Positions 37,976 through 63,171 of a DNA stretch of 64,000 nt are shown here, piece after piece. Under the pieces are notes generated by a model. It saw only the letters and a program-made list of their open reading frames with translations. It had not been told where the DNA came from and searched no databases. This DNA is from an uncultured Candidatus Saccharibacteria bacterium (GTDB taxonomy: Bacteria; Patescibacteriota; Saccharimonadia; Saccharimonadales; JAGQNJ01): NCBI GenBank assembly GCA_964510945.1, contig CAZEED010000001.1, forward strand, positions 98,774 through 162,773, written 5' to 3'. Made by a program: the position numbers and the translations under genes. Each line of letters begins with the position of its first letter. The stretch's first letter is position 1.

Positions 37976-38013
37976 AAACAACATCATCGAAAATATAATG
38001 ATACAATACGTTT

Positions 38014-45804: not shown

Positions 45805-45812
45805 GTAAGATT

Positions 45813-47185: not shown

Positions 47186-47233
47186 AGCTACGAAATACAG
47201 TATTATATATAGTAATAACTAATTGAGGGTTTT

Positions 47234-48727: not shown

Positions 48728-48777
48728 CCCTTTACAAACAGATAAGAAGTAGGCTATAATTACCTCTTGTTATATTT

Positions 48778-48999
48778 ATGACTAAACAAAAGGAAGTTAT
48801 TGAACTAGAAGGTAAAATAGTAGAGACGCTTCCTGGCGCTCAGTTCAAGGTAGAACTAGAGAATGGTCATCAAATTATAGCTCACGTCGCCGGTAAAATG
48901 AGGAAATATTTTATCCGCATTGTGCCAGGTGACAGCGTGACGGTCGAGTTGACCCCTTACGACCTAACTAAGGGAAGAATCACCTATCGCAAAACGTAA
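48778..48999 (+). CDS. infA: Translation initiation factor IF-1
   Basis: 73 aa; [33 protein letters not shown]. Confidence 0.96.
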
Positions 49000-49099
49000 T
49001 ATTAAAGCAGTGTGTCCTTCGTAGCTTTAGCGAAGTAGGATCCGCATCGATCGTTTATAGCTAAACGATAACCCAATTAAGAGAGGAAAATCTAACGGG

Positions 49100-49216
49100 A
49101 TGAAAGTGCGTGCAAGTGTTAAAAAGATAAGTCCAGACGATAAGATAGTTCGTCGTAAAGGCCGTGTCTATATTATAAATAAACTAAAGCCTAAACATAA
49201 ACAGAGGCAAGGTTAA
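49100..49216 (+). CDS. rpmJ: 50S ribosomal protein L36 (Cys-less form)
   Basis: Not in the ORF track (38 aa); hand translation [38 protein letters not shown]. Confidence 0.9.
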
Positions 49217-49218
49217 AT

Positions 49219-49605
49219 ATGGCTCGAATATCTGGAGTTACGATTCCTACTGATAAGCAAATAGAAATTGCGTTAACTTACGTATACGGAATCGGCAGAA
49301 AGTCTAGCCACGATATTTTAGTTAAAGCAAAGATTGATCCAACGATCAGAGTCAAAGATTTAACAGATAGTGAAATATCTAAAATTCAAGACATTATTAA
49401 TGAGCAATACTCAGTTGAAGGTGATTTACAACGAGTTGTTACAACAAATATTAAACGGCTTAAAGATATTGGATCCTACAGAGGTCTAAGGCATCAACGA
49501 AGCCTGCCTAGTAGAGGTCAACGAACAAGAACAAACGCCAGGACTCGTAGAGGTAAAAAAGTAACTGTAGGCGGTACTAAAGTTAAGGCAGCGACAAAAA
49601 CATAG
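49219..49605 (+). CDS. rpsM: 30S ribosomal protein S13
   Basis: [26 protein letters not shown]. Confidence 0.96.
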
Positions 49606-49612
49606 GTAATTT

Positions 49613-50071
49613 ATGAAAGAAGATAACCCAATTATTGAATCAAAAGCTCCAGAAGTAGCTGAAACGCTTGATACTGATAAAGTCGTTACTAAATCAGTAA
49701 AGCGAAAAAAAGTTAAACGAACTGTACCTTACGGTCAAATGCATATTCTCGCAACTTTTAATAATACAATTATTACTTTTACTGACTCTAAAGGTAACGC
49801 TTTGACATATAGCAGTGCAGGAGCATGTGGGTTTAGAGGATCGAAAAAAGGCACAGCCTACGCTGCCCAAATCGCTGCTGAGAAGGCTGCCAACAGTGCA
49901 AAACAGAATTTTGGACTGTCTAAAGTTGATATTTTTGTAAAAGGAGTAGGTCTTGGGCGAGAAGCCGCAATTAGGACTTTGATAAACGCGAACATAAAAG
50001 CTGAAAGTATAGCAGACGTTACTGGTGTACCACATGGTGGCGTTAGACCAAAGAAAGCACGGAGAGTATAG
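49613..50071 (+). CDS. rpsK: 30S ribosomal protein S11 (N-terminal extension)
   Basis: HILATFNNTIITFTDSKGNALTYSSAGACGFRGSKKGTAYAAQ. Confidence 0.95.
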   Translation: MKEDNPIIESKAPEVAETLDTDKVVTKSVKRKKVKRTVPYGQMHILATFNNTIITFTDSKGNALTYSSAGACGFRGSKKGTAYAAQIAAEKAANSAKQNFGLSKVDIFVKGVGLGREAAIRTLINANIKAESIADVTGVPHGGVRPKKARRV

Positions 50072-50692
50072 ATGGCCCGAGATAGAAGCAGTATTGTAAA
50101 ACAGAGTAGGAGAGAAGGCTATGCTTTGCATCCAAAAGCACATAAAGCCCTAGTAAAGAAAACTTCACTACCTGGTAAAGCACCAAATTATCGTGCTCGA
50201 AATAAAGATAGCCAGTATTCTCTGCAACTAAGAGAAAAGCAAAAAGTTAAAAGACTATATGGGCTATTAGAAAAACAATTCAGAAAATTAATGAAAGAAG
50301 CTAGCGCAACTAAAGGCCAATCCGGCGAAACGCTTCTAAAATATCTAGAACAGCGTGCTGATAATGTTGTTTACCGATCAAGTTTTGCAACAAGCCGTAG
50401 AGCCGCTAGACAACTCGTCACCCATGGTCATTTTGAGTTAAACGGTAAAAGATTTGATATTCCTTCAATAAGAATCAACCCAGGCGACGTTTTGAGCGTT
50501 CGCGATAAGAGCAAAAAATCCGAGTACTTTAAACTAATTGATGATCTTAGTCCTGCAGGAGCAGAAGGATCGATCAGTTGGTTAAAAGTTAATAGAAAGA
50601 AACTTGAAGTATCTGTTACGGCCCTCCCGCCGCGCGAAGAAGCCGAACCAGATATTAACGAGCAATTAATAGTAGAGTATTACTCACGATAA
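50072..50692 (+). CDS. rpsD: 30S ribosomal protein S4
   Basis: 206 aa; S4 RNA-binding domain RADNVVYRSSFATSRRAARQLVTHGH. Confidence 0.95.
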   Translation: MARDRSSIVKQSRREGYALHPKAHKALVKKTSLPGKAPNYRARNKDSQYSLQLREKQKVKRLYGLLEKQFRKLMKEASATKGQSGETLLKYLEQRADNVVYRSSFATSRRAARQLVTHGHFELNGKRFDIPSIRINPGDVLSVRDKSKKSEYFKLIDDLSPAGAEGSISWLKVNRKKLEVSVTALPPREEAEPDINEQLIVEYYSR

Positions 50693-50709
50693 GGGAGGTG
50701 AGCAGTCAA

Positions 50710-51645
50710 ATGTCAAAATCAATTTATACACCAGGAGTAGTCACCGTAGACGACCATAGCAAAACAAGTGCAACGTTCGTCATTGAACCACTTCATACTG
50801 GATATGGTATGACTCTAGGGAATAGCCTTCGTCGAGTACTGTTATCTAGTATTTCAGGAGCATCTATCACAGCATTTAAAATTGAAGGTGTAACTCATGA
50901 ATTCACCGGAGTTCCAGGTATCAAAGAAGATGCTGTTGATATCATGCAGAACCTCAAAGGCGTCAATTTCAAAGTATTTAGTGAAGAGCCTCAGACGTTA
51001 AGGATCGTGAAAAAAGGTAGCGGGACAGTTACCGCAAAAGATATTGAAGTTAACGCAGATGTCGAAATTGTCAATCCTAAGCACGTTATATGCACGATTG
51101 ACGATTCTAAAGGTTCTTTTGTTGCCGACATAGTTGTCGAAACAGGTAGAGGCTACCGTCCAATCGAAGAAGGGGCACTACGAAAACCAAGTGATATGAT
51201 CGCAATTGATGCAATCTTTGGACCAGTACAGAGGGTTCGATATAAAGTTGAGCATACTCGTGTTGGCCAAATGACTGACCTAGACAAGCTAATAATTGAT
51301 GTAGACACTGACGGTTCTATATCTCCAAGCGATGCGTTTGAAGAAGCGGCTGCTATTTTAGTTAATCAATATACTGCTCTAGCTGGCCAGACTCGTGTTA
51401 AAGCGGCAGCACCAATTACTGCTGAGCCAGAAGTTGAAAACGCAGTTGAAGAACAAACAGAACTAATGACCCCAATCGAAGACCTCAACCTATCAGCCCG
51501 AACAACCAACGCACTTGTAAATAATGATATCCATACCTTAAAAGACCTATTTAGTCTTAGCGACATTGAATTACGAGAGCTAAAAGGCTTTGGATCAAAA
51601 GCACTAGATGAAGTGAAAGATAAAATGGCGGAACTGGAGCTGTAA
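50710..51645 (+). CDS. rpoA: DNA-directed RNA polymerase subunit alpha
   Basis: ORF 50698-51645; ATG 50710 follows GGGAGGTG; N-terminal dimerisation domain and C-terminal helix-hairpin-helix (LNLSARTTNAL). Confidence 0.95.
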   Translation: MSKSIYTPGVVTVDDHSKTSATFVIEPLHTGYGMTLGNSLRRVLLSSISGASITAFKIEGVTHEFTGVPGIKEDAVDIMQNLKGVNFKVFSEEPQTLRIVKKGSGTVTAKDIEVNADVEIVNPKHVICTIDDSKGSFVADIVVETGRGYRPIEEGALRKPSDMIAIDAIFGPVQRVRYKVEHTRVGQMTDLDKLIIDVDTDGSISPSDAFEEAAAILVNQYTALAGQTRVKAAAPITAEPEVENAVEEQTELMTPIEDLNLSARTTNALVNNDIHTLKDLFSLSDIELRELKGFGSKALDEVKDKMAELEL

Positions 51646-51646
51646 T

Positions 51647-52132
51647 ATGCATCGACACGGATATCAGGGAAGAAAGTTTGGCAGAGAGCGCGATCAGCGT
51701 AAATCTCTTATTAAGTCATTGGCTGATTCTTTGATTATCCATGAATCGATTGAAACAACCCTAGAGAAAGCTAAAGAAGTTAATCCGTACGTAGAAAAGC
51801 TAATAACCAAGGCAAAAAAAGGCGGGTTAGCTAATCGACGATACATTATTGCGCACCTTCAGACCAAAGAAGCATCACACAAGCTTGTTGATGGTATTGC
51901 ACCCCAACTAACCGGCCGAACCAGCGGACACCTTAGGATTGTAAAAACTACTTCTAGGCGTGGCGATAATGCCCAACTTGCTAGAATTAGTTTTGTTGAC
52001 GAACTTAAGCAGATTACTGCCGAAGAGTCTGCAAAAAAATCTTTAAGTAAACCAAGTGAGACATCACAAACGAAAAAAGTCGCTACAAAAATGACAGTAG
52101 CAAAAAAACCAGTTAAGGCGGAGAAAAAATAG
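51647..52132 (+). CDS. rplQ: 50S ribosomal protein L17 (C-terminal Lys-rich extension)
   Basis: MHRHGYQGRKFGRERDQRKSL. Confidence 0.94.
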   Translation: MHRHGYQGRKFGRERDQRKSLIKSLADSLIIHESIETTLEKAKEVNPYVEKLITKAKKGGLANRRYIIAHLQTKEASHKLVDGIAPQLTGRTSGHLRIVKTTSRRGDNAQLARISFVDELKQITAEESAKKSLSKPSETSQTKKVATKMTVAKKPVKAEKK

Positions 52133-52573
52133 ATGAAAACTTATAGTGCCAAAAATACCGATGTAGAACGCAAATGGTGGCTGGTTGATGCTTCTGATTT
52201 AACTTTAGGTAGATTATCAACTGTTATTGCGACAAAACTCACAGGCAAAGATAAACCTATATTTAGCCCTCACGTTGATTGTGGCGACTATGTAGTAGTA
52301 ATAAACTCAGATAAATTAGTAGTTACTGGCGATAAACTTAACAAAAAGACTTATTATCGACATAGTGGCTTCCCTGGAAATCTTAAAGAGTCTAGCCTTC
52401 AAGAGCAAATCGATAAGGATTCGAGAAACGTAATTATATACTCGGTACGCGGAATGCTACCTAAAAACAAGTTACAAGACCCTAGAATAAAACGATTAAA
52501 AGTGTACGCTGGACCTGAGCACGATAACACCGCACAACAGCCAACAACGCTAAATCTTAAGGAAGGTAAATAA
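52133..52573 (+). CDS. rplM: 50S ribosomal protein L13
   Basis: RKWWLVDASDLTLGRLSTVIATKLTGK. Confidence 0.95.
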   Translation: MKTYSAKNTDVERKWWLVDASDLTLGRLSTVIATKLTGKDKPIFSPHVDCGDYVVVINSDKLVVTGDKLNKKTYYRHSGFPGNLKESSLQEQIDKDSRNVIIYSVRGMLPKNKLQDPRIKRLKVYAGPEHDNTAQQPTTLNLKEGK

Positions 52574-52974
52574 TGGCTATAAAAAACGCATATTTCTATG
52601 GTTTAGGACGAAGAAAAAGTGCCTCAGCACGAGTCAGGATTTCGGGCGGTAGCGGAAAATTCATTATCAATGATCACACAGCTGAAGATTATTTCGCTAA
52701 TAGTAAAAATTTGCTAAATGAACTAACAAAACCATTTACTGCGGTTGATCTAGTTAATAAGTTTGATGTTAGCGTTAAAGTTATTGGTGGAGGACACAGT
52801 GGACAAGCTGATGCCATTATCCTAGGTATTTCAAAAGCACTTGCAGTTATGAACGAAGATCTTAGAAGCACATTGCGTCGTGCAGACCTACTCGGTCGCG
52901 ATCCAAGAGAGAAAGAACGTAAGAAGTTCGGACTCAAGGGCGCTCGTAAACAAAGACAGTTCACAAAACGATAA
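52573..52974 (+). CDS. rpsI: 30S ribosomal protein S9
   Basis: GGGHSGQADAIILGISKAL...DPREKERKKFGLKGARKQRQFTKR. Confidence 0.96.
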   Translation: MAIKNAYFYGLGRRKSASARVRISGGSGKFIINDHTAEDYFANSKNLLNELTKPFTAVDLVNKFDVSVKVIGGGHSGQADAIILGISKALAVMNEDLRSTLRRADLLGRDPREKERKKFGLKGARKQRQFTKR

Positions 52975-53014
52975 TTTTCAAATTTTTGAGTAAAATAACA
53001 TTTTCGCAGTTTCA

Positions 53015-53206
53015 ATACTTTTGACCGCCAAAAGTATGACAAAAGCTCGGGCTTAACGTTTTTTCTTGACTAACTCACTAGTCAAGACAAACAACAGTCT
53101 GCGGAACTCCCCCGCACCTATTGCTTAGACAAAAGGTGCGGGGTCAGACAGTCCTCGCCTGATAGTTGTTTGTTTGACCTGAGTCATCAGGAAAAAGCCG
53201 ATGCCC
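53015..53206 (+). repeat. Structured foldback element, copy B
   Basis: ATACTTTTG-ACCGC-CAAAAGTAT hairpin; ACAACAGTCTGCGGAAC...CAGACAGTCCTCGCC; apical hairpin CCCCGCACCT/AGGTGCGGGG; aligns with copy A. Confidence 0.65.
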
Positions 53207-53276
53207 AACACAAAAAACAACCCCGCAACGTTAGTCTGGTCGTTGGCCAGATAAACGATGAGTATTACATATTGTT

Positions 53277-53467
53277 GGCATCCGGCTTGTCCTGAATAAC
53301 TTCGTTAAAGTAACAACAAAAAAGGCGAGGACTGTTTGAAGTTAGTAGTATGCCTGAGTGGCATATTACTAACAAGTTTCGCAGTCTGTTGTTATCTTTA
53401 ACTAGAAGTTATATAAAGACAAACGAAAAGCCAAGAGTTTTGTATTACTTTGGCGATACAAAGTAAT
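53277..53467 (-). repeat. Structured foldback element, copy C (inverted relative to B)
   Basis: The reverse complement aligns with copy A (CGTTTGTCTTTATATAACTTC..., ...GACGAAGTTATTCAGGACAAGCCGGATGCC); apical hairpin GTTAGTAATATGCC/GGCATACTACTAAC. Confidence 0.65.
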
Positions 53468-53513
53468 AGTTTTTGAATTATATTTACAAAATTTCTGACA
53501 TGATTGATAATAC

Positions 53514-53542
53514 TTGACAAATTATATATGAAGCTGTATTGT
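53514..53542 (+). promoter_or_regulatory. Candidate promoter TTGACA-17 nt-TATTGT for the G+C-rich operon leader
   Basis: TTGACA 53514-53519; TATTGT 53537-53542. Confidence 0.4.
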
Positions 53543-53656
53543 CTTATGGTTATGTTTCAAAACATTATAAACAACACAACTTATTGGTTTACCTCCAAAT
53601 ATTCATGGCGGCAAACTTCGTATTGTCTATAAAATAACAAACTATCAAGAAATATT

Positions 53657-53679
53657 AACCGCCACCAAGGCGGTTTTTT
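53657..53679 (+). terminator. Intrinsic terminator 20 nt upstream of the first ORF of the G+C-rich operon (attenuator candidate)
   Basis: AACCGCC-ACCAA-GGCGGTT plus T-run. Upstream TGGCGG (53606-53611) can pair with CCGCCA of the left arm. Confidence 0.65.
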
Positions 53680-53699
53680 AATAGTAAAGGAGAATAATC

Positions 53700-53960
53700 A
53701 TGATAAGACCAGAGCATAATCCAGAGAGAGTAACGGCAGGTCTACCGGACCAGATAGAATCAATCCCGAGTAGATTGCTAATTGCTCTAGATCAAGGAGT
53801 AATTAAAGAATCAGATTTAGTACCAAATATTGCAGCGACTATAAGCAGTAATCATAGGCCCGAAGTTGACCCACCATTAAATATTCATGAACAAGTAGAA
53901 CGAACCAGACACATAAATCAATTAGCAGCTAGCTGCGTAGAACAATTTTCAAAACAATAA
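53700..53960 (+). CDS. Hypothetical protein (first ORF of the G+C-rich operon)
   Basis: 86-aa ORF behind AAAGGAG; no motif recognised. Confidence 0.45.
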   Translation: MIRPEHNPERVTAGLPDQIESIPSRLLIALDQGVIKESDLVPNIAATISSNHRPEVDPPLNIHEQVERTRHINQLAASCVEQFSKQ

Positions 53961-54025
53961 GATTTAAGGAGAAAATATCATGCAAACTATAACAACAGAA
54001 CAATTACATACAGCAACTGAAGCAC

Positions 54026-56200
54026 TTGAACGACGGGGGTTGGTTTGGCTCGCCTGAAATTGCAGCCATACGCTTAAGAGGATATCCGTACGAGCAAGTT
54101 ATCGACGGAGAACCTCACGACAGTACAGATACTTTAAATGGCTTTGCACGTAACGAGAGCTATGAAAACAATCTTGCCCTAAAGCTAGCTGAGCACGAAC
54201 CAGACCTAGAACCACTGCGAGAACTCGGATTTCATGGACTAGATGCCAAGGTGAAAAGCCCTGGTGCCCTAACCTATGAAGAGGCTTTTAGCCTAGCGAC
54301 CTTCGTATGCCTAACAAGCAACAGAGAGCTACACAAGGCTTTTGAGCCTGAGCTAGCAGGTATTGGTGAGCCGGAAACTTTGCGTCTTCAGGCGGTTTCA
54401 TTGCTTCAAGGCATGTCAACTCGTGAGAGCCTGATCGGTTTTGAACCACAGGAAATTGCTGGAATGGTAGCCGCTACTTTAGAGCTAGATACCGTGGCTC
54501 GAGTAGCATCCCCTAGCGAAACCCCGACATTCATTGTTGGCGGTATGGGCGGTGATAGGGGTATACCCTCTCACGGGGAGCAGTCAAAACTATTTAGTAC
54601 CTCTACGCTTGCTTCAATAGCATTGGCTGGACTCGTGGCTGTTCATAAGCATCACTCTTACCCCAATACATCCAAAGCAGCTGGCCAATCAGCTATAGAA
54701 GCTTTGGGCGCAAGATCCGATATGGAGGATGCCGCAACTATGGAACTGGCACTAGGCATATCTGGAATGCTTATGACGAGTTGTCATAGCGTAAGAACCC
54801 TGCACACCATATCCCATATTCTTAAGGGAGAAACAGTCAATCACGCTATCGGGCCTTTGGCGGTTCCGCATGCCAGCAGCGATAAAGTTAACGCTCTAGT
54901 TGGCGTGAACCATAATGTTCACCCGACAACAATCATTGAAACCTTGCGTGTACTACAGACTAAAGGTATCCAAGACTACGGTAATAGCGTAGCGTTTTGT
55001 GGAGTTACTGCTCCGGTTGAAGAGCTCCCTGCTGAGATCTTAGACCCTAAAGCTTACTATGCTGCTCCTGATCTAAAGGAGTTAATCATGCTGGATGAAG
55101 TAGCGCCACCACCATTTGTAACGATGGCATCATTCTTAGTTGATGGCCAATCAAGTGGACCGTATTTAATCGAACCAATTGACTTCATGGAAGCCGAAGA
55201 GGCAGAAGCTATGTCATCAGATGGATTGCTGATTCCAAATACCCTGGAAGACATCATGACAGCCAATAATGCGGTCATCCAGGCCCAGGATCATATGAAG
55301 ACAAAGTACGTGGCGATGACCGTTGCTTTGGCCAACTTCGCGAGAGATTATGCGCATCTGCCTGACGCACTTGATGTGGATGCTCGTACTGTGAACAGAG
55401 CCTATCTTCGAGCATGTTTTAGAGCTGCTGTAGAAAATATGAGCGATGGGTCTATGGAGAACACAACAAGACTCTACGGCGAAGCAACGCAGAAAGACAT
55501 GCTTCCAAACATAGATGTGGTGGTCTTGGATATCGATAACACCTTGATTCGCCCTAAAAACCAAGACTTCTACGAACAATACTCAGAAGCTGTAAACTTG
55601 GCCATTGCTAACTATCTTGGCGTTAACCTAGAAGAAGCTACAAAAGTTGCGGACTTTTTCAGGGAAAACTTTGGTGGTGGCGAACAAGCCTTGTTTTCAG
55701 GAGCTGTTGGGGATTACTTTCCACAATACGGGAATCCTAGCCCTGACTTCGAGCTGCTTTACGATGCTATGTCCCAGATCAAGATTGATGGTCAATTTGG
55801 TGATGATGGCTTGAGTGCCAAGCTAGTTAAATTACTACGAGCCAAAGGCAAGAAAGTTGTAGCTATGACCGATTCGCCTGAAAGTCTATCGAGGCAGACA
55901 CTAAAAGCATGCGGCTTCGACCCAGATTCTGATTTTGACCTGTACGTTCCCTACACCAAAGAATCCGGTCCCCCGAAAATCGTGCAGGCCGATGAGGCTT
56001 TCAAGAGCATCGCTGACTATTTCGAGGTAGATCCTAATAGAGTGCTGAGTGTGGGTGATAGTCTAACAAGAGATATTGTACCAGCAGAAAGGTCTGGTAT
56101 GAAAACGTGCCTTGTCTCTCAGTACGATGTGCCTGGATACGAAGGCCTACAAGTAACTAATCTTGCGGATACATTCCGCACATATAGGAGAAGTTTATGA
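54026..56200 (+). CDS. Fusion protein: glycosyltransferase family 3 (TrpD/nucleoside phosphorylase-like) N-domain plus HAD-superfamily phosphatase C-domain; 5' end apparently frameshifted
   Basis: GGMGGDRG...LFSTSTLASIALAGLVAVHKHHSYPNTSKAAGQSAIEALGA resembles the TrpD GTGGDG...KHGNR...GSAD.LEALG pattern. HAD motifs VVLDIDNTL, MTDSP, VGDSLTRD. Strong SD plus ATG at 53980 is in another frame. Confidence 0.6.
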   Translation: MNDGGWFGSPEIAAIRLRGYPYEQVIDGEPHDSTDTLNGFARNESYENNLALKLAEHEPDLEPLRELGFHGLDAKVKSPGALTYEEAFSLATFVCLTSNRELHKAFEPELAGIGEPETLRLQAVSLLQGMSTRESLIGFEPQEIAGMVAATLELDTVARVASPSETPTFIVGGMGGDRGIPSHGEQSKLFSTSTLASIALAGLVAVHKHHSYPNTSKAAGQSAIEALGARSDMEDAATMELALGISGMLMTSCHSVRTLHTISHILKGETVNHAIGPLAVPHASSDKVNALVGVNHNVHPTTIIETLRVLQTKGIQDYGNSVAFCGVTAPVEELPAEILDPKAYYAAPDLKELIMLDEVAPPPFVTMASFLVDGQSSGPYLIEPIDFMEAEEAEAMSSDGLLIPNTLEDIMTANNAVIQAQDHMKTKYVAMTVALANFARDYAHLPDALDVDARTVNRAYLRACFRAAVENMSDGSMENTTRLYGEATQKDMLPNIDVVVLDIDNTLIRPKNQDFYEQYSEAVNLAIANYLGVNLEEATKVADFFRENFGGGEQALFSGAVGDYFPQYGNPSPDFELLYDAMSQIKIDGQFGDDGLSAKLVKLLRAKGKKVVAMTDSPESLSRQTLKACGFDPDSDFDLYVPYTKESGPPKIVQADEAFKSIADYFEVDPNRVLSVGDSLTRDIVPAERSGMKTCLVSQYDVPGYEGLQVTNLADTFRTYRRSL

Positions 56201-57060
56201 GTAACCCAGAAATTATCTATGAAGTTGGCGAAGGTAACCCTATCGTCGTCATCAACACAGGAACACATGGCAACGAATATCAACCAGTAGAAGCAGCTAA
56301 TCAGTTTGCGGAAAATTTTGACGGATCCGAGTTAGTAACGGGGACAGTAAGACTTATTGTCTCAAACCCCCCTGCCTTGGAGCAGAATAAAAGATTCTTA
56401 GACGAAGACTTAAATAGAGCTTTTCCTGGTGATCCATCTTCCCCAAGTCGAGAGGCAAGATTAGCCTCTCAAGTACTTGGGTTAGTTGATGATGCGGATT
56501 TTGTAGTTGATCTGCACACTGCTCCAGACGGACCACCTTTTACAATTTTGGGCTCAAGGGATAGATCAAGACTTGATCTTGCTGAGCTTGCGCCGGTTCA
56601 GGATATTGTTCTATTTGAAGCTACTGAACCATGCGCAATGGTTGATTTTACTAAGTGTGGTATAGGCATTGAGATAGGAGCTCACACGGACGAACAGTCA
56701 ACGCAAGAAGGGGTTTCAATTATCGAAGCATACCTCGAGCGATTAGGCCTAACTCCTTCGACCCTAACAGGTGGCCGTAAATACGCTTACTCAAGACGAG
56801 GCTTAGGCGATCTGTTCCCACATCAATACCATGAAGTATTTTCGCGCTTAACCAGAGCAGACATACCCGAAGATGCTATAGCACAACTCAAGAATCTTGA
56901 GCCAATAGATAGTGCAACACTGGGTTTGAACCTAGAGGAGCCCGTTGTTCATCCTGTGCTATGTGGCGACAAAGATTACTCTCCCGTCTTCTGCTACTTA
57001 GCTAAACCGGTGGATAGAGAAAGTCTGGGAGGAAGGAAACGATACAATGCTTATTTTTGA
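56197..57060 (+). CDS. Succinylglutamate desuccinylase/aspartoacylase (AstE/AspA) family zinc deacylase
   Basis: INTGTHGNEYQP, EDLNRAFPG, VVDLHTAP; ATGA overlap with the upstream gene. Confidence 0.65.
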   Translation: MSNPEIIYEVGEGNPIVVINTGTHGNEYQPVEAANQFAENFDGSELVTGTVRLIVSNPPALEQNKRFLDEDLNRAFPGDPSSPSREARLASQVLGLVDDADFVVDLHTAPDGPPFTILGSRDRSRLDLAELAPVQDIVLFEATEPCAMVDFTKCGIGIEIGAHTDEQSTQEGVSIIEAYLERLGLTPSTLTGGRKYAYSRRGLGDLFPHQYHEVFSRLTRADIPEDAIAQLKNLEPIDSATLGLNLEEPVVHPVLCGDKDYSPVFCYLAKPVDRESLGGRKRYNAYF

Positions 57061-57958
57061 TACTGACGCTGGGCATGACGATGTCTTAGCGATGCTGATG
57101 TTACTCAAGTCCAAACAGTTCGATGTGTTGGGCATAACTACGGTTGCCGGTAATTCAACGCTTGAAAATGCTACCCGTAATACCGCGTTTGCGCTTGATC
57201 TGTTAGGAAGACGCGATATTCCTATTTTTTCAGGCGCAGCTAAACCTCTCAAGAGACAGCTCGTCCAAGCGGTTGTTCACGGACATAGTGGTCTTGATGG
57301 TGCCGATACATCTAGAACTAGCTATACACTCACCAATAATGCTGTCAATAAGCTTATCGAGCTAGTTCGAGCTCACCCTTACGAAGTAACAATCCTGACA
57401 CTGGGGCCACTAACCAATATTGCAAAAGCATTCGAGGCTGACCCAGATCTTCCGACGCTTGTTAAGGGACTGGTCATTATGGGCGGTGTTGTTGATGGCG
57501 TTGGTAACAAAAACCGTGTCGCCGAGTTCAATATATTCGTTGACCCAGAAGCTGCCCATATCGTGTTTAGTGCAAATGTGAAAAAAACGCTCATTCCGTT
57601 TGATATATGTAGAGACATTGTTTTCCCGCTGAAAGACTTCGACAAGCTCAAAGGAACAAGCCTGCATAAGCCTGTTAAGAAAATGATGAAACCATTCATA
57701 TCTGGACTTAAGGCCGAAGAGGGAATCAACGGGGCGCTATTGCCTGATCCTATAGCAGCCTACTACCTATTAAACCCAAGAGTCTACACTATAAAACCAA
57801 TGGATATAGTCGTCGAAACATCTGGTAAGCATACTTCAGGAATGACAGTCATTGAAAAAAGAAAGAACAAACCACAAAAATATAATATAGAAGTAGCAAC
57901 AAGAATTATCGAAAATAAATTTAAACAACATTTCTTTAAGCTACTGAGGAAAGCCTAG
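57047..57958 (+). CDS. Inosine/uridine-preferring nucleoside hydrolase family protein
   Basis: N-terminal fingerprint LIFDTDAGHDDVLAMLM (DxDxxxDD); 14-nt overlap with the upstream gene. Confidence 0.85.
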   Translation: MLIFDTDAGHDDVLAMLMLLKSKQFDVLGITTVAGNSTLENATRNTAFALDLLGRRDIPIFSGAAKPLKRQLVQAVVHGHSGLDGADTSRTSYTLTNNAVNKLIELVRAHPYEVTILTLGPLTNIAKAFEADPDLPTLVKGLVIMGGVVDGVGNKNRVAEFNIFVDPEAAHIVFSANVKKTLIPFDICRDIVFPLKDFDKLKGTSLHKPVKKMMKPFISGLKAEEGINGALLPDPIAAYYLLNPRVYTIKPMDIVVETSGKHTSGMTVIEKRKNKPQKYNIEVATRIIENKFKQHFFKLLRKA

Positions 57959-58002
57959 AAGTTAATAACTAGGACGTAAATAATATATAATAGGAGAAAG
58001 TT

Positions 58003-59055
58003 ATGAGCAAACCACTTCAACAAGTTCAGGACAAGCCAGTAATTTTGACAGGCCTTCGGGCAAATAACGACTTGCACCTCGGTAGCTACCTAGGGGCGAT
58101 GTTACCTATGGCGCAGATGCAAAAGAAATATGGAGAAACCTATCAGTTGAATATGTTTATCCCTGACTTGCACAGTTTTACTACGCCTATCGACCACAGT
58201 AAGCTATACGAGCAATCAATACATAATCTAAAGTTATTTACAGCATCAGGACTAGATATAACTCATCCTGATACATATATATACCGTCAGAGTCGAGTAT
58301 CCGCCCATAGCGAATTAACCGTAATTTTGAACTGTTTTACCTATATGGGCGAGCTTCAGAGGATGACTCAGTTTAAAGAAAAGAGTGCGAAATCAGATTC
58401 CGTTTCTGTTGGACTTTTTGACTATCCGGTTCTTATGGCAGCGGATATTTTGCTTTACGGTGCAAAATACGTTCCGGTAGGGGCCGACCAGACGCAGCAC
58501 GTAGAACTAGCTCGAGATATTGCAATTCGCATGAACAACAAGTTCAACCGAGAATTATTTGTACTGCCAGAGGCCGAGAAAGATCAAATTGCCTTTGCGA
58601 CTCAAGACGAAAGATTACGCGTCAGGGATTTGCTTGATCCTTCTAAAAAAATGAGCAAATCTGACGAAACAGGTAAAGGAGTGATTTTCTTAGGTGATAG
58701 CCCTGAGACAGGTGCAAAAAAGATTATGAGCGCCACGACTGATAGTCTAGGTGAGATTAACTATGATTTTAATAAGCAACCAGGAATTAGTAATCTACTA
58801 GATATCTTAAGTGCACTTACCGATACACCAATAAAAGACACTGTCGCAAAATACAAAGGCCAAACACAATACGGCCCGCTAAAACAAGATGTTGCAGAAG
58901 CTGTAAAAAACTTCTTAACAAATTTCCAAACAAAATTAACGCAAGTTGATGAAAAAGCACTAATGGATAAGCTAGAAGAGTCAGAAAAAGCCATGAACAT
59001 AGTCGCAAACCAAACCCTACACAAAGTCCAAGAAGCCGTCGGTCTCCGTATTTAG
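58003..59055 (+). CDS. trpS: Tryptophan--tRNA ligase
   Basis: 350 aa class I aaRS; GLRANNDLHLGSYLGA (HIGH-type), KMSKS. Confidence 0.88.
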   Translation: MSKPLQQVQDKPVILTGLRANNDLHLGSYLGAMLPMAQMQKKYGETYQLNMFIPDLHSFTTPIDHSKLYEQSIHNLKLFTASGLDITHPDTYIYRQSRVSAHSELTVILNCFTYMGELQRMTQFKEKSAKSDSVSVGLFDYPVLMAADILLYGAKYVPVGADQTQHVELARDIAIRMNNKFNRELFVLPEAEKDQIAFATQDERLRVRDLLDPSKKMSKSDETGKGVIFLGDSPETGAKKIMSATTDSLGEINYDFNKQPGISNLLDILSALTDTPIKDTVAKYKGQTQYGPLKQDVAEAVKNFLTNFQTKLTQVDEKALMDKLEESEKAMNIVANQTLHKVQEAVGLRI

Positions 59056-59056
59056 T

Positions 59057-59917
59057 ATGCAGAAAATCATAGTTGATCAGAATGAGAATACACGGCTTGA
59101 TTTGTTTTTAGTCTCAAAAATCCCCGAATTAAGTAGAAGTTCTATCGCAAAACTAATTAACGACGAAAAAGTATTAGTTAATAAAAAACCTTGTTCTAGT
59201 AAATATAAAACAAAGCTAGATGATGAAATAACTGTATATTTTGATCCTAGAGATTTGGATGAAATTCCAACAATCGATCTACCGATTTTGTATGAGGACG
59301 AAAACTGCGTTGTTATTGATAAGCCCTCGGGCATTTTAACGCATAGTAAAGGTGCATTTAATCCTGAGGCAACTGTAGCGACTTTTATCAGAGAAAAGAT
59401 AACGGATATAGACAGCGAACGGGCAGGTATTGTGCATCGACTAGATAGAGGCACTTCAGGTGTAATTATTTGCGCAAAAAACCAAAAGTCACTGGATTAC
59501 CTGCAAAAGCAATTTGCCGAGAGAAAAACAGTCAAAAAATATATCGCAATTATCGAAGGAGAGATTACCCCGAGCGAAGCCGTAATTGATATGCCGATTG
59601 CCAGAGATGTTAAAAATCCCAAAGCATTCTGTGTGAAAACAAGTGGTAAAAATGCAGTCACCAGCTATAAGGTACTAAAACAACACAATAACTATTCAAT
59701 GCTAAAACTAACCCCAAAAACCGGCAGAACTCATCAATTAAGAGTCCATTTATCACACCAAAAGCACCCAATTGTTGGCGACGACCTCTACGGCGGCAAG
59801 CCATTTAATAGAATTCTGCTTCATGCAAAAGACTTAACAATAAACTTGCCGGAAGGAAAAACAACGACTTTTGAGTCCAAACTGCCGTCCGAATTTACAG
59901 ATATAATGGATATATGA
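59057..59917 (+). CDS. rluD: RluA/RluD-family 23S rRNA pseudouridine synthase
   Basis: S4-like N-domain; catalytic HRLDRGTSGVII; GRTHQLRVHL. Confidence 0.85.
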   Translation: MQKIIVDQNENTRLDLFLVSKIPELSRSSIAKLINDEKVLVNKKPCSSKYKTKLDDEITVYFDPRDLDEIPTIDLPILYEDENCVVIDKPSGILTHSKGAFNPEATVATFIREKITDIDSERAGIVHRLDRGTSGVIICAKNQKSLDYLQKQFAERKTVKKYIAIIEGEITPSEAVIDMPIARDVKNPKAFCVKTSGKNAVTSYKVLKQHNNYSMLKLTPKTGRTHQLRVHLSHQKHPIVGDDLYGGKPFNRILLHAKDLTINLPEGKTTTFESKLPSEFTDIMDI

Positions 59918-60765
59918 CGCAACCTCTAGTAAATCCTCGCACCAAAAATCAAGTTGATGATTTTATTAAAAATCCGTCACACGCTCTAATTATTTCTGGT
60001 CCTGACGGCTCAGGAAAAAATCAATTAACTGAATATATTTCACTGTCTATCCTCGAAACGTCTGATATAAATACTTATCCGTACTTACACAAAATCATGC
60101 CAATTGATAACAAACTTGGTATAGAACAAGTTAGAGAACTGCAAGAACTAACTAAACTTAAAATCCCTAGCAATAAAAGAATCTCTAGAATTGTAATAAT
60201 TGAAAAAGCAGATATTTTGGGTGACGAAGCCCAAAATGCACTGCTAAAAACATTAGAAGAGCCTCCAAAAGACACAATACTAATCTTAATTGTTAATGAT
60301 CAAAATAATCTACTGGGTACTGTAAGCTCAAGAGCAGTAACAATAGAGCTTTTACCTCCCACCAAAGATCAACTTTTAAAGCACTTTACTAATAAAGGTT
60401 TCGACAATACACAGGTTGAACGAGCGATCTTACTGGGATCTAACAGGCCGGAAATCATTAGCGACATACTAGAAAAGAATGAATCTAAATTCGAGAAATC
60501 AATATCTAAAGCAAAAGATATTCTGTCAAACAGTGAGTTTGATAGATTAGTTAAAATTAACGAACTGTCAAAAGACAAACAAGTTTCATCCGAGATTATA
60601 GATTCGCTAATACTAATTGCCCGATCAGCGATGAAGTCAGCAGCAAAACCGGAGCAAGTTAAACGCTGGCATAAGATACTTAAAAATGCTGATAAGGCAA
60701 AACAAATGATGGCCAAAAATGGCAATACCAAAATTATACTAACTGACTTGTTCTTGAACCTATAG
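59914..60765 (+). CDS. holB: DNA polymerase III delta' subunit (clamp-loader AAA+)
   Basis: GPDGSGKNQL P-loop variant, AQNALLKTLEEPP sensor motif. Confidence 0.72.
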   Translation: MTQPLVNPRTKNQVDDFIKNPSHALIISGPDGSGKNQLTEYISLSILETSDINTYPYLHKIMPIDNKLGIEQVRELQELTKLKIPSNKRISRIVIIEKADILGDEAQNALLKTLEEPPKDTILILIVNDQNNLLGTVSSRAVTIELLPPTKDQLLKHFTNKGFDNTQVERAILLGSNRPEIISDILEKNESKFEKSISKAKDILSNSEFDRLVKINELSKDKQVSSEIIDSLILIARSAMKSAAKPEQVKRWHKILKNADKAKQMMAKNGNTKIILTDLFLNL

Positions 60766-60780
60766 TATAATCATGTACAG

Positions 60781-61437
60781 ATGTTAGAACTATTATTTGT
60801 TATAGGATTTGGAGTTATCGCTTATCGGAGCGCTACAATTCGAGACGAGGATTTATCACCACTTCCGCGAAAACTTAGCGACAAACTAGGTCAATTATGG
60901 GGCATAGCCCACCAAGGGATGAAAGATAATAGCCTAATTCGGGCAGAAAAAGCCTTATTGACTATCCTTAAAATTGATAAAAAGAACGCTGCTGCCTATA
61001 ACCGTCTAGGAATCTTGTATGCAAAACAAAAAGAATACAAAGACGCCATAGATTGTTTTGAAATTGCTTCGAGCATCGAAGTTAGCCCGTCTAGTTTGCA
61101 CAACCTAGGTTTGATTTATTACGAAACAGAAAATTATGAAAAAGCCGCGACTGCGTTTGAGCAAGCTTTAAAACTTGAAGATAATCTTGCGGCAAGACAC
61201 GTAGCATACGCAAAAGTCCAAGAAAAATTAGGCAATAATAAACTCATGTTTGCAGAGCTAGAAAAGGCCGTAGAATTAGAGCCTACAAAAGAATCATTAA
61301 AATATCTTCATCAGGCTTATGAAAATAACGATATGCACGAACAAGCAAAAAGTATTCGTCGAAGACTAGACCGCGCGACCGTATCAAAAACAAAACCAAA
61401 AAAGCTTATTCGTCCAAAACGCAGAGTTGTTATTTAA
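60781..61437 (+). CDS. TPR-repeat protein with N-terminal membrane helix
   Basis: Repeated A..YN.LG..Y....Y..A...FE.AL pattern, three to four repeats. Confidence 0.7.
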   Translation: MLELLFVIGFGVIAYRSATIRDEDLSPLPRKLSDKLGQLWGIAHQGMKDNSLIRAEKALLTILKIDKKNAAAYNRLGILYAKQKEYKDAIDCFEIASSIEVSPSSLHNLGLIYYETENYEKAATAFEQALKLEDNLAARHVAYAKVQEKLGNNKLMFAELEKAVELEPTKESLKYLHQAYENNDMHEQAKSIRRRLDRATVSKTKPKKLIRPKRRVVI

Positions 61438-61612
61438 CCCCTGTTCTGATAAAATTTACAGGTACTTTTCGCTGTTTTAACCTAGCTTTTCAACCTAACG
61501 ATTCGATTTATTCGGCTCGAGCGATTGAAAGGCTAAGAAAAAGAAGCGACTAGAGATTGAAGGCAAATATTCGTAGAATGTTAGCGGAAAGTCGACCGTC
61601 GGTTCTGACGAG

Positions 61613-61689
61613 CCGCCTTAGCTCAGTTGGTTAGAGCGACGGTTTTGTAAACCGTAGGTCGTCGGTTCGAATCCGACAGGCGGCTCCAA
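61613..61689 (+). tRNA. tRNA-Thr (anticodon TGT), CCA encoded
   Basis: GCCGCCT/AGGCGGC acceptor, anticodon loop TTTGTAA, T-loop TTCGAAT. Confidence 0.92.
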
Positions 61690-61724
61690 AAGAGACGTAT
61701 GCAACTTTATGTTACAGGCGGCTC

Positions 61725-61737
61725 CACAGAAAACTTC
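61725..61737 (+). repeat. Direct repeat of the tRNA-Thr 3' end (ACAGGCGGCTCCA), copy 2
   Basis: Identical 13-mer to 61677-61689. Confidence 0.85.
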
Positions 61738-61790
61738 TACTAGTTTACTGGAGAGAAGTTTTCGAGGAAGCAACTGCAGCCCGAAGGGCT

Positions 61791-61803
61791 ACAGGCGGCT
61801 CCA
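61791..61803 (+). repeat. Direct repeat of the tRNA-Thr 3' end (ACAGGCGGCTCCA), copy 3
   Basis: Identical 13-mer; preceded by hairpin AGCCC-GAA-GGGCT in a T-arm-like position. Confidence 0.85.
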
Positions 61804-61918
61804 TCCTTCGTCGCTGAAGCTATGAAGGATAAACATATAGAATGCCATGCGAGAGCATTCTAGAACATTTGAGGTGAGTTCAGAGAAGTGTTGACGACCC
61901 GAAACTCGGGTCGTTTAC

Positions 61919-62004
61919 GCAGGGTTAGTGAAGCGGTCAAACACGGCAGACTGTAAATCTGCTGGCTTATGCCTTCGTAGGTTCGAATCCTACACCCTGC
62001 ACCA
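61919..62004 (+). tRNA. tRNA-Tyr (anticodon GTA), long variable arm, CCA encoded
   Basis: GCAGGGT/ACCCTGC acceptor, anticodon loop CTGTAAA, variable arm, T-loop TTCGAAT. Confidence 0.9.
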
Positions 62005-62011
62005 ACTATAG

Positions 62012-62036
62012 AATCCCGCATTTGTGGGATTTTTTA
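62012..62036 (+). terminator. Intrinsic terminator after tRNA-Tyr
   Basis: AATCCC...GGGATT stem followed by TTTTT. Confidence 0.65.
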
Positions 62037-62143
62037 GTTGGTCCTGATTAATAAATTCGAACCGACAGGCGAGAACAGTCGGGGACTGTTTGAGTTATAA
62101 ATATTTATAGCGAGATGCTTTAGCTCTCGAGCGGATAAATCAA

Positions 62144-62166
62144 TTCGAGTCCTACACCCTGCACCA
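62144..62166 (+). repeat. Direct repeat of the tRNA-Tyr 3' end (TTCGAGTCCTACACCCTGCACCA)
   Basis: 22/23 identical to 61982-62004. Confidence 0.85.
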
Positions 62167-62220
62167 ATTCTGTAAAGTATTAAGGACGTCAGAACCGCGT
62201 CCTTTTGTTATAGTAGAGTC

Positions 62221-62379
62221 ATGAATTGTCCTAAATGCAACAAACCGATGCTCAAAGTTCGCTCAGAAATTACCAACAACCTCAAATCAGGTAAAGACTT
62301 TAAGGAGTACAATAAGTTCACATATGAATGTAAAACTGATGACATCTGGGTAACTACTGAGACTCCTGTATCAAAATAG
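62221..62379 (+). CDS. Possible 52-aa zinc-ribbon-like peptide
   Basis: Hand translation MNCPKCNKPMLKVRSEITNNLKSGKDFKEYNKFTYECKTDDIWVTTETPVSK; CPKC plus a single distal Cys only. Confidence 0.3.
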   Translation: MNCPKCNKPMLKVRSEITNNLKSGKDFKEYNKFTYECKTDDIWVTTETPVSK

Positions 62380-62429
62380 ATCGTTATAATTGCTCAAAAG
62401 TTGCTAGAACCATAGCAAAACATAGTAAG

Positions 62430-62795
62430 ATGAAGTATGTAATGGTTGTTTCAGAAGTTGTTATTCATCACAAAGCACGATTTAATGTTGCTGTGCCAAT
62501 TACAACTGACGTAACAGGTGAATGTCTAGATATTGTTCAGGCATATTCAGATTCAATTCCCTCATTGGGAATACCTACATTAGAACATGTGATTCCTGGA
62601 CTAGTAGAAGTAGCATTAGTATCGTGGGAAGAAGCTAGATATAGCAAGAAAGTAATAGATTCATGGGTAAAAATTGGCGCGGGTAGGATATCGTTATCTG
62701 AACTATTCTATTGCCAACCCATACCTCATGATCCAAAAATTACGTATAATAGGGATGAACACTTCAAGCAATTAGAACTAGGTTTGCCAACATAG
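62430..62795 (+). CDS. Hypothetical protein
   Basis: 121-aa ORF, no motif recognised. Confidence 0.4.
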   Translation: MKYVMVVSEVVIHHKARFNVAVPITTDVTGECLDIVQAYSDSIPSLGIPTLEHVIPGLVEVALVSWEEARYSKKVIDSWVKIGAGRISLSELFYCQPIPHDPKITYNRDEHFKQLELGLPT

Positions 62796-62859
62796 CCCCG
62801 CCTGTCTGGTCAGAGGTAAAACATCCATACATATCGATTTTAAGTGGTACAATCAATAC

Positions 62860-63060
62860 ATGGAAAGAATTTCGATCCAAAAAACACCAATTGAAACAAA
62901 GTCCGATGGAGATCACGATACTTTATGGCTCGTAGAACCTAGCGAACAAGCTATAGTGGCTTTCGAAAGAAGAGAAGCCGAGATAATCATGGCAGAAACA
63001 CCTGACCCAGTCTTTGATGCAGATCACTGCATTGGAAGCCTGGTGCTAATGCCGACATAG
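62860..63060 (+). CDS. Hypothetical small acidic protein (3' end overlaps tRNA-Thr by 10 nt)
   Basis: 66-aa ORF only. Confidence 0.25.
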   Translation: MERISIQKTPIETKSDGDHDTLWLVEPSEQAIVAFERREAEIIMAETPDPVFDADHCIGSLVLMPT

Positions 63061-63125
63061 CTCAGGGGTAGAGCGCATCCATGGTAAGGATGAGGTCCTG
63101 GGTTCAAATCCCAGTGTCGGCTCCA
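63051..63125 (+). tRNA. tRNA-Thr (anticodon GGT), CCA encoded
   Basis: GCCGACA/TGTCGGC acceptor, anticodon loop ATGGTAA, T-loop TTCAAAT. Confidence 0.92.
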
Positions 63126-63171
63126 AAATTTATACTTGAATATATCAATCTAATCTGTTAATCTATACTTC

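Follow-up and report, generated by a model that had tools for sequence, protein, structure and literature searches.

In the bacterial release factor 2 (RF2) gene prfB, a Shine-Dalgarno-like (SD-like) sequence is followed 3 nucleotides (nt) downstream by a slippery CTTT and then by TGA C (PMC12421855); the sequence record of Escherichia coli prfB reads AGGGGG TAT CTT TGA C. The logic of this programmed +1 frameshift is autoregulatory, in that the codon in the ribosomal A site gauges how much is available of the factor that decodes it. A related class of events comprises the hungry-codon frameshifts of Gallant and the yeast Ty1 site CUU_AGG_C, where the ribosome slips by +1 on an NUU codon in the P site while a slow sense codon occupies the A site (PMC5009743). 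In bacteria, hungry-codon shifts are known as errors under laboratory starvation, and Ty1 depends on a rare tRNA, not on amino-acid supply. A 2016 review of recoding noted that hungry-codon shifts could give starvation-specific trans-frame proteins, of which "no examples are known" (PMC5009743), and our literature search for tryptophan-sensing frameshifts, which included work after that review, found nothing relevant. The locus described here lies in a 64,000-nt stretch of DNA (the window, to which all positions refer unless a locus is named) from an uncultured Candidatus Saccharibacteria bacterium (GTDB lineage JAGQNJ01; GenBank assembly GCA_964510945.1, contig CAZEED010000001.1, forward-strand positions 98,774 to 162,773). 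The first enzyme gene of a plus-strand operon ahead of trpS, the gene for tryptophan-tRNA ligase (TrpRS), carries a site that looks like a natural starvation-sensing frameshift switch. We consider it probable that this is an accessory operon switched on by shortage of tryptophan (Trp), situated in a strain-variable slot before the native trpS, with enzyme genes acquired from another lineage of the Candidate Phyla Radiation (CPR).

Four plus-strand open reading frames (ORFs) make up the locus, at 53700-53960, 54026-56200, 56197-57060 and 57047-57958. They encode a small protein of 86 amino acids (aa; orf86), a TrpD-like phosphoribosyltransferase fused to a HAD phosphatase (724 aa as called), an AstE/AspA-type zinc deacylase and an inosine-uridine-type nucleoside hydrolase (IUNH). 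A preliminary description of the window, made from its letters and ORFs, gave these ORFs and their overlaps (ATGA at 56197, 14 nt at 57047) correctly; it read the 5′ end of the first enzyme gene without seeing that the frame is discontinuous. The 724-aa frame has no ATG, and its sole candidate start, a TTG at 54026, has no ribosome-binding site and is not credible. Just after orf86, AAGGAG is followed at 8 nt by ATG 53980, which opens a 25-codon ORF (MQTITTEQLHTATEALERRGLVWLA) in the frame one nt upstream of the 724-aa frame and overlapping the start of the latter. The first 22 codons of this ORF (53980-54045; MQTITTEQLHTATEALERRGLV) would be the 5′ segment of the TrpD-like/HAD gene in the 0 frame, and are homologous in amino acids to the leader of the related locus L125 (MEITTEQLQTTPHTRGLV). 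They lead into a putative programmed +1 frameshift site at 54035-54057, prfB-like in its geometry and recurring in homologues, which is composed of GGGGG (54035-54039), a TTG spacer (54040-54042), the slip codon GTT (54043-54045), the A-site codon TGG (54046-54048) and a 0-frame TGA (54055-54057). The arrangement of frames indicates that the called TTG start is wrong, that ATG 53980 is the real one and that a +1 shift is required.

The same frameshift architecture was found in 21 distinct TrpD-like loci, which come from a variety of samples and assembly programs, and in a GNAT-like gene of sister strains. At every junction an SD-like G-run is followed by 3 nt, then [C/G]TT, then TGG. The run is GGGG, GGAG or GAGG (AGGG or CGGG in L049 and L004), and it stands 3 nt before the slip codon in 21/21 TrpD-like loci and in the GNAT loci. 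Clade B, L001 and the GNAT gene have CUU_U as the slip sequence, and the window shares GUU_U with most of the fusion clade; UGG is the A-site codon throughout, with a 0-frame stop 1-23 codons further on. The stand-alone genes of clade B (L013, L015, L017-L020, L078, L082, L089) read GGGG TAT CTT TGG C, and 12 nt of this (GGGGTATCTTTG) are identical to E. coli prfB. The need for a shift is visible in the reading frames, where the +1 frame lacks a start and is closed by a stop before the junction: the fusion clade has no ATG in the main (+1) frame, and in 8 of its 10 loci a TAG stands in that frame directly before the junction. The motif occurs in none of the 29 loci that have ordinary ATG starts (0/29). 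A scan of 2.6 Mb of collected DNA on both strands gave 66 matches to the motif, 36 of them with frameshift architecture (the 0 frame open upstream and soon closed by a stop, the +1 frame open over a long distance), and all 36 fall in a TrpD-like gene or in the GNAT gene of the sister-strain slot. In the latter (L026 8631-9282; L029 8281-8932; L035 2738-3389) the site reads CAG AGG TGT CTT TGG CAA TGA at codon 68, and joining the two halves (68+148 aa) yields a protein of normal length. Most loci also have, directly upstream of the site, a hairpin that uses the SD-like G-run as its 3′ arm (z down to -3.8; L013, L015, L017, L078 and L089, about 45 nt upstream of the shift site, and L043-L046), with few compensatory changes. 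The collected sequences contain no RF2 gene, so there was no native prfB site to compare.

Could the frame break be an error of sequencing or assembly in a G-run, or the trace of a pseudogene decaying after transfer? It does adjoin a run of five G, and gene callers set a TTG start downstream of it; both explanations are nevertheless highly improbable, as the same break, codon and motif recur in 21 divergent loci from many samples and in the unrelated GNAT gene, and the downstream ORFs are intact over 480-720 codons with invariant catalytic residues. Moreover, an identical 724-aa ORF is present on a JGI contig, and the neighbouring proteins of the window are recorded from NCBI and Logan assemblies. 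Judged by this pattern, neither sequencing error nor pseudogenisation can account for the frame breaks. Transcriptional slippage is unlikely on runs this short. Recoding of TAG, or an altered genetic code, was rejected, as the other genes of the same loci are normal in table 11 and more stops lie upstream of the TAG in L044.

A different explanation would make the short ATG ORF a regulatory upstream ORF (uORF), with the enzyme translated from a non-canonical start or by termination and reinitiation, in which case a pause at UGG could still make expression depend on Trp. Amino-acid operons are often controlled by leader peptides, another such leader lies upstream in this same operon, and the 0-frame stop comes only 1-23 codons beyond the Trp codon. 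We regard a uORF as quite unlikely, however. In most fusion-clade loci, the stretch of the main frame that separates the TAG from the conserved IASIRL...PY segment contains none of ATG, GTG and TTG; the spacing of prfB (SD-like run, 3 nt, NUU_U), which plays no part in reinitiation, is preserved exactly in every case; and the GNAT site at codon 68 lies inside the protein, both halves of which are required for the full-length domain of 216 aa.

A frameshift switch, which is the preferred reading, has much in common with prfB: an internal SD-like G-run exactly 3 nt before an NUU_U slippery site, a position near codon 22-29, and a slow A-site codon that starts with U and is usually followed by C. 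The autoregulatory logic may be shared as well. Unlike prfB, the sites described here have the sense codon UGG in place of UGA and would sense charged tRNA-Trp rather than RF2, the genes under control encode metabolic enzymes, unshifted ribosomes would run a few codons more before a stop, and the window uses GUU instead of CUU. That ribosomes shift at these sites, and do so in response to Trp, we infer from the anatomy of the sites and their conservation.

Further evidence comes from the composition of the products. In the window, the 739-aa product of a +1 shift, the AstE-type deacylase, the IUNH, TrpS and orf86 are all without Trp, and the cassette has 0 Trp in 1,329 residues where 9.4 are expected (p=8e-5). 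The sole UGG in the called 724-aa ORF sits upstream of the junction and would not be translated. Across the family, 23 frameshift products together contain 1 Trp in 12,706 residues, against a background of 1.08% in the same loci. It is this family-wide figure that carries weight, because Trp-free proteins also occur elsewhere in the genome.

Upstream of the frameshift gene the operon has what looks like a trpL-style attenuator. A promoter-like site at 53514-53542 (TTGACA, 17 nt, TATTGT), found by consensus scan only and accompanied by a second candidate at 53483-53511, lies in a region kept in sister Saccharibacteria strains. It is followed by a leader-peptide ORF at 53546-53632 (MVMFQNIINNTTYWFTSKYSWRQTSYCL; alternative start ATG 53552) with Trp codons at 53585-53587 and 53606-53608, and then, between the leader peptide and orf86, by an intrinsic-terminator-like hairpin, AACCGCC...GGCGGTT with a T-run, at 53657-53681. 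Both leader Trp codons are preserved in L026, L029, L031, L034 and L035, and the pairing of a two-Trp ORF with a terminator is conserved in sister strains. In L028 a comparable two-Trp leader with many aromatic codons (MSHTKPYFNFWFINPLKWRSTCYCQ), together with the same terminator, precedes a different cassette. As in trpL-type attenuation, these elements precede Trp-related genes, trpS among them. The likeness has limits, in that the Trp codons here are not tandem, the antiterminator is weakly predicted, the leader is possibly translated from a leaderless or SD-less start, and the putative attenuator is paired with a second, translational sensor downstream. A scan of 52500-59500 against Rfam at E<=1 gave no T-box, riboswitch or other family. 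In L125, a TrpR-family gene and a terminator hairpin precede the frameshift leader.

The next gene, orf86 (53700-53960), has its own strong Shine-Dalgarno sequence and no match in Pfam or NCBIfam. It is conserved only in related Saccharibacteria, where it is 71-86% identical in sister strains, always comes first past the putative attenuator and stands ahead of different cargo, and this distribution marks orf86 and the promoter region as resident backbone. Between rpsI and the operon promoter the window also has a highly structured repeat (52990-53513; RNA fold z=-13.9 for 53040-53420), with a second copy at 37799-37984 (z=-6.9). L032 also has the repeat at this position, and L026, L029 and L035 lack it there; it matches nothing in Rfam and resembles a mobile element of the miniature inverted-repeat transposable element type.

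Exact sequence matches assign the genes flanking the operon to Candidatus Saccharibacteria. Comparison of strains delimits a variable segment at 52974-58032, within which the acquired coding block proper is 53980-57958. The near-identical locus L028 aligns by blastn to 45580-52973 and 58033-64000 at 98.3-98.5% and to nothing between; its slot between rpsI and trpS (7465-9981) holds three unrelated genes instead, for a protein of 243 aa, a prephenate dehydratase, and a protein of 241 aa whose N-terminus has a glycine-rich (GxGxxG-like) motif and which matches nothing in Pfam. Homology between L026 and the window ends at 53985 and restarts at 58033. In L026, L029-L031 and L035-L037 the order is orf86, the GNAT-like gene, a different AstE-type deacylase and trpS, and L032-L034 and L038, which are short contigs, have the beginning of the orf86-GNAT arrangement and then break off. 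The AstE-type protein of the window has no tblastn match to that of the sister strains and is 50.5% identical to the AstE of L004, another CPR genome, whose cassette runs fusion, AstE, IUNH, TrpS. The fusion protein is 54-67% identical to those of other CPR cassettes and the IUNH 51-62%; the TrpS of the window is 91-97% identical within Saccharibacteria and about 30% identical to the TrpS of the donor-like loci. The closest relative, L125, has 67.5% identity, and its DNA has 44.5% G+C, like the cassette rather than the host. Since the cargo of the slot varies between sister strains and the identities point to other CPR lineages, the block 53980-57958 is a horizontally acquired replacement.

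Horizontal acquisition had been proposed in the preliminary description for all four ORFs, and this is borne out for the three enzyme genes, orf86 having been wrongly included. The proposal drew on two spot counts of G+C, which were accurate (51.7% and 25.0%) but unrepresentative, the true contrast being smaller: 45.5% for 53980-57958 against 39.6% for the remaining window. The cassette is compositionally distinct all the same, as 521 other windows of the same length have a mean of 39.6%, a standard deviation of 1.3% and a maximum of 42.5%. The 724-aa gene ranks first among 57 ORFs in G+C (0.471) and in G+C at third codon positions (0.421), and the tetranucleotide distance of the cassette is moderately unusual, 9 of 105 comparison windows being at least as distant. 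Given the UGG site, the Trp-free products and the leaders, the slot ahead of trpS resembles a site for expressing alternative cassettes under the control of starvation for aromatic amino acids or Trp.

The protein encoded by the frameshifted gene belongs to the lineage of TrpD, the anthranilate phosphoribosyltransferase (AnPRT). Its TrpD-like domain occupies 54047-55510 in the +1 frame, and the fused HAD phosphatase domain, with the stop codon, 55511-56200. All motifs quoted in the preliminary description occur in the translations (GGMGGDRG, KHHSYPNTSKAAGQSAIEALGA, LDIDNTL, GDSLTRD, HGNE, DLNRAFPG, DLH and DTDAGHDD), and the four domain assignments made from them stand, those of HAD, AstE and IUNH by Pfam and that of GT3/TrpD by fold and by sequence matches to solved TrpD structures. 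With PF00591 (Glycos_transf_3) the window protein scores 16.9 bits, under the gathering threshold of 27; the distant Parcubacteria-type subfamily carries precomputed matches to this family. The AlphaFold model has a mean confidence score (pLDDT) of 92.9, and the top 50 Foldseek matches in the PDB are all anthranilate phosphoribosyltransferases, with E down to 1.5e-13 and target-normalised TM-scores of 0.76-0.84. The HAD domain (DIDNT, GDSLTRD) matches PF00702 at E=2.4e-11 (44.8 bits against a cut-off of 26.4) and reaches no NCBIfam equivalog cut-off; its best NCBIfam matches, which are weak, are pyrimidine 5′-nucleotidase and YigB-type phosphatases.

The ligand-binding residues of AnPRT are well defined. 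Phosphoribosyl pyrophosphate (PRPP) and Mg are bound by the GTGGD loop, S119/T120, K135, S142/S143 and D251/E252, and the carboxylate of anthranilate by N138 and R193 (Mycobacterium tuberculosis numbering; PMC9835598). Alignments to 1v8g and 5noe, with residue roles taken from the same review (PMC9835598), show that the PRPP/Mg ligands are kept: GGMGGD, S193/T194, K208, T215/S216 and D357/E358 (724-aa numbering) are invariant or nearly so in sets of 90 and 34 sequences. The carboxylate ligands are replaced, KHGN aligning with KHHS so that Asn becomes S211, and GxRT with GET so that Arg becomes E269, a residue invariant across both subfamilies. The family should therefore still use PRPP and should not bind anthranilate in the known manner. 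Judged by these residues, it is a new subfamily of the TrpD lineage that departs from AnPRT at the anthranilate-binding positions. It has in common with TrpD the two-domain fold, the GTGGD-type loop, the S/T of helix alpha5, the Lys of KHGN, the T/S of the beta2-alpha6 loop, the Asp-Glu Mg site and a genomic link to tryptophan genes. It differs in being about 150 residues longer and often fused to HAD, in falling under the Pfam threshold (in the subfamily of the window), in the invariant Ser and Glu at the carboxylate positions, in a conserved His/Cys-rich stretch (SCH..R..H..SH), and in having BtpA, IUNH and deacylases as partners instead of TrpF and TrpC. TrpD2/YbiB and the type II nucleoside phosphorylases (thymidine, pyrimidine-nucleoside and AMP) share the fold superfamily (PMC9835598). 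TrpD2/YbiB, however, lacks the PRPP motif and binds DNA, and a TrpD2/YbiB-like role as a nucleic-acid binder was rejected because the motif is intact here. The phosphorylases have a C-terminal alpha/beta hammerhead domain that was not detected in the window protein (no PYNP_C PF07831 and no PF02885 by Pfam), and no phosphorylase is among its top 50 structural matches; these matches and the conserved TrpD-type Mg site led to rejection of an AMP-phosphorylase-like reading.

A search of 5.8 billion proteins recovered both fused proteins of about 650-765 aa and stand-alone ones of about 490 aa from Woesebacteria, Gottesmanbacteria, Roizmanbacteria, Collierbacteria and Blackburnbacteria, and a distant subfamily (about 460 aa), both stand-alone and HAD-fused, in Parcubacteria/Paceibacterota. 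Only 62 clusters at 50% identity, from 1.84 billion representatives, reach E<1e-30, and on this sampling the family is restricted to the CPR. A literature search for the TrpD-like family and for the function of BtpA found no description, and the fusion with its partners is, as the preliminary description had supposed, a combination for which we found no paper.

Of the partner enzymes in the window, the AstE/AspA-type zinc deacylase (56197-57060, its start overlapping the stop of the fusion in ATGA) matches PF24827 at E=8.6e-24 (84.6 bits against a cut-off of 25), contains HGNE, DLNRAFPG and DLH, and falls under the aspartoacylase and AstE equivalog cut-offs. The IUNH (57047-57958, overlapping the deacylase gene by 14 nt) matches PF01156 at E=5.5e-87 (292.6 bits over 1-297/297, with DTDAGHDD) and falls under the NCBIfam equivalog cut-offs for RihA, RihC and UriH. 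The native trpS follows at 58003-59055 (TIGR00233, E=1.2e-85), with a promoter-like site at 57962-57991. Relative to its relatives, the TrpS of the window has an N-terminal insertion of 8 residues (MSKPLQQVQDKPVILTG in place of MSKPVILTG; 58003-58033). The 5′ part of trpS differs from that of L028 and the rest is 98% identical, so the recombination breakpoint probably lies inside the gene.

The genomic surroundings of the family were compared over 87 non-redundant loci from genomes and metagenomes, the counts of TrpRS and deacylases within 5 kb being based on the 31 that are fully flanked. A BtpA-family TIM barrel or an IUNH lies within 2 kb in 56/61 loci; an IUNH is present in 12/16 loci where HAD is fused or adjacent, and BtpA in 36/45 where HAD is absent. 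An AstE-type or M20 deacylase is found within 5 kb in 16/31 and TrpRS in 24/31, including 19/20 loci of the Microgenomates type. Because TrpRS occurs upstream, downstream and divergent, its nearness is not a single inherited arrangement. Genes of the Trp_repressor family adjoin many loci, and other repeated neighbours are PfkB-like kinases, extra phosphatases (HAD-IIB, LMW-PTP), GNAT-like proteins and pyridoxal-phosphate decarboxylases beside TrpRS. L025 has TrpE (Chorismate_bind and Anth_synt_I_N) and TrpG (4807-6872) directly upstream of TrpRS, TrpD-like, HAD, BtpA and PfkB; L097 has a TrpA fragment at its contig end (12648-13022); and L041 has EPSP synthase and an aminotransferase. Chorismate-mutase (CM_2) domains, fused to a S-adenosylmethionine methyltransferase or to a 120-aa N-terminal extension, recur beside Parcubacteria-type TrpD-like and BtpA genes (L092 11412-12563 and its relatives L097, L114 and L120; L039 1630-2352). 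As a separate observation, these CM_2 neighbours are reminiscent of arylamine-producing aminodeoxychorismate-mutase pathways. Comparison of BtpA itself by hhalign with E. coli TrpC/F and TrpA gave probabilities of 3-4%, too low to be informative; against the PDB, TrpA chains head the list for the BtpA profile (E=1.5e-6), only over the common phosphate-binding end. In a study of groundwater CPR, trpA was present in 15% and trpB in 18% of 0.2-um-enriched Patescibacteria genomes, and neither in the 0.1-um-enriched ones (PMC8672522).

The preliminary description had read the operon as a horizontally acquired module for salvage or catabolism of nucleosides, nucleotides or modified nucleosides, which would feed bases and ribose to an auxotroph. 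The TrpD fold would then be a nucleobase phosphoribosyltransferase or an enzyme of the AMP-phosphorylase kind, the HAD domain a 5′-nucleotidase and the IUNH a nucleosidase, with the nearness of trpS due to inherited synteny or a permissive site. CPR bacteria rely on nucleotide salvage, and a Saccharibacterium as host fits the setting of an auxotrophic symbiont that had been suggested. The match to IUNH is strong, the weak NCBIfam matches of the HAD domain include pyrimidine 5′-nucleotidase, PfkB-like kinases occur in 6/31 loci and IUNH in most HAD loci (the 12/16 above), and TrpD and type II nucleoside phosphorylases have a common fold (PMC9835598). We consider this reading unlikely nonetheless. 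The best structural matches are TrpD throughout, with no nucleoside phosphorylase and no PYNP_C domain, and the TrpD-specific Asp-Glu Mg site is kept; nothing ties the cassette specifically to salvage, and its conserved context is related to tryptophan (TrpRS, TrpR-family, TrpE/G, TrpA and chorismate-mutase domains). Salvage would also leave unexplained the Trp codon at the shift site, the leader peptide with its Trp codons and the Trp-free products.

The same context bears on another reading, according to which the operon responds to inhibition of TrpRS: Trp analogues from an actinobacterial host, similar to indolmycin or chuangxinmycin, would deplete charged tRNA-Trp and so induce enzymes that modify them by ribosylation or deacylation, together with more TrpRS. 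Ribosylation is a familiar route of drug inactivation, the cassette is co-located with trpS, accessory, strain-variable and horizontally transferred, and the sensor would read charged tRNA-Trp, not free Trp. We hold this to be very unlikely, as the family is spread across groundwater and sediment CPR, the TrpE/G, TrpA and chorismate-mutase neighbours point to metabolism, and the window has no second TrpRS of the resistance type.

A response to Trp shortage, the reading that we prefer, could proceed as follows. Transcription would begin at the promoter near 53514-53542 and run past the two-Trp leader (26-28 codons) and the terminator, through orf86. A ribosome that has read 22 codons from ATG 53980 would hold GUU in its P site and, in its A site, the one UGG that the operon has from there on, with the G-run 3 nt upstream. 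With charged tRNA-Trp plentiful, UGG would be decoded and translation would stop three codons later at UGA 54055; with charged tRNA-Trp scarce, a vacant A site together with pairing to the SD-like run and the NUU_U sequence would promote a +1 slip (GUU_U to UUU) and synthesis of the 739-aa Trp-free protein. Through the overlapping start and stop codons the Trp-free deacylase and nucleoside hydrolase would also be made, and the translating ribosomes would protect transcription into trpS. The 739-aa protein would combine a PRPP-dependent phosphoribosyltransferase of the TrpD lineage with a HAD phosphatase, and since the Arg and Asn that hold the carboxylate have given way to Glu and Ser, its acceptor is presumably not bound as anthranilate is. 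With low confidence we suggest phosphoribosylation of an arylamine or of a precursor in the Trp branch, with the HAD domain taking off a phosphate; with equally low confidence, the deacylase may free an amine (the acceptor or Trp itself) from an N-acyl conjugate, and the nucleoside hydrolase may provide ribose for making PRPP or may recycle an N-riboside. Taken together, these activities would raise the supply of Trp. Linear pathways built from the phosphoribosyltransferase, phosphatase, deacylase and N-ribohydrolase were also considered, and no chemically convincing version could be derived.

Several observations weigh against this account. Frameshifting on a sense codon is normally inefficient. 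The slip codon of the window is GUU, not CUU, and after the slip the P-site tRNA-Val mismatches the first codon position; the upstream hairpin is absent from the window, as it is from L019 and L020; and relatives of the Parcubacteria type have ordinary starts. At the leader, a possible antiterminator in which UGGCGG (53606-53611, overlapping the second Trp codon) pairs over 6 bp with the left arm CCGCCA arises only with the terminator's 3′ arm deleted (dG -8.7 kcal/mol, z=-1.6). Absence of Trp is shared by other ORFs of the genome, namely one of 824 aa, one of 393 aa (36035-37216) and one of 315 aa (50698-51645), the last of which we take from its position and length to be RpoA. TrpRS is nearby in only 5/11 Parcubacteria-type loci, and a search of 120 loci and the window with E. 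coli TrpA-E revealed no TrpB, TrpC or TrpF, the TrpE/G of L025 and the TrpA fragment of L097 being the only finds. Finally, the roles given to the HAD domain and the IUNH are guesses, because a phosphoribosyltransferase, a phosphatase and an N-ribohydrolase acting in line form a futile cycle.

Should the account hold, full-length Trp-free enzymes would be made only when charged tRNA-Trp is short, and the locus would represent a natural hungry-codon frameshift, built as a prfB-type cassette with a Trp codon in place of the stop and set before Trp-free enzymes next to trpS. This would bear on a decades-old question raised by laboratory starvation, which a simple reporter can address. As a practical caution, gene callers truncate or mis-start the genes that carry the site. 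The comparison of strains provides an unusually clean case of cassette exchange from one CPR lineage to another, into what appears to be a regulated expression slot. More tentatively, and with somewhat less than even confidence, we propose that the CPR possess a dedicated translational sensor of Trp, recruited at least twice (by the TrpD-like and GNAT genes), that controls a new tryptophan-branch pathway replacing or bypassing the canonical TrpD-TrpF-TrpC steps. Such a pathway, in which the TrpD-like enzyme would act with BtpA or with HAD and IUNH, and with a deacylase, would give the BtpA family its first enzymatic role. A CPR-wide enzyme of the TrpD family with an altered acceptor pocket hints at unrecognised tryptophan-related metabolism in organisms that were thought to be without amino-acid synthesis.

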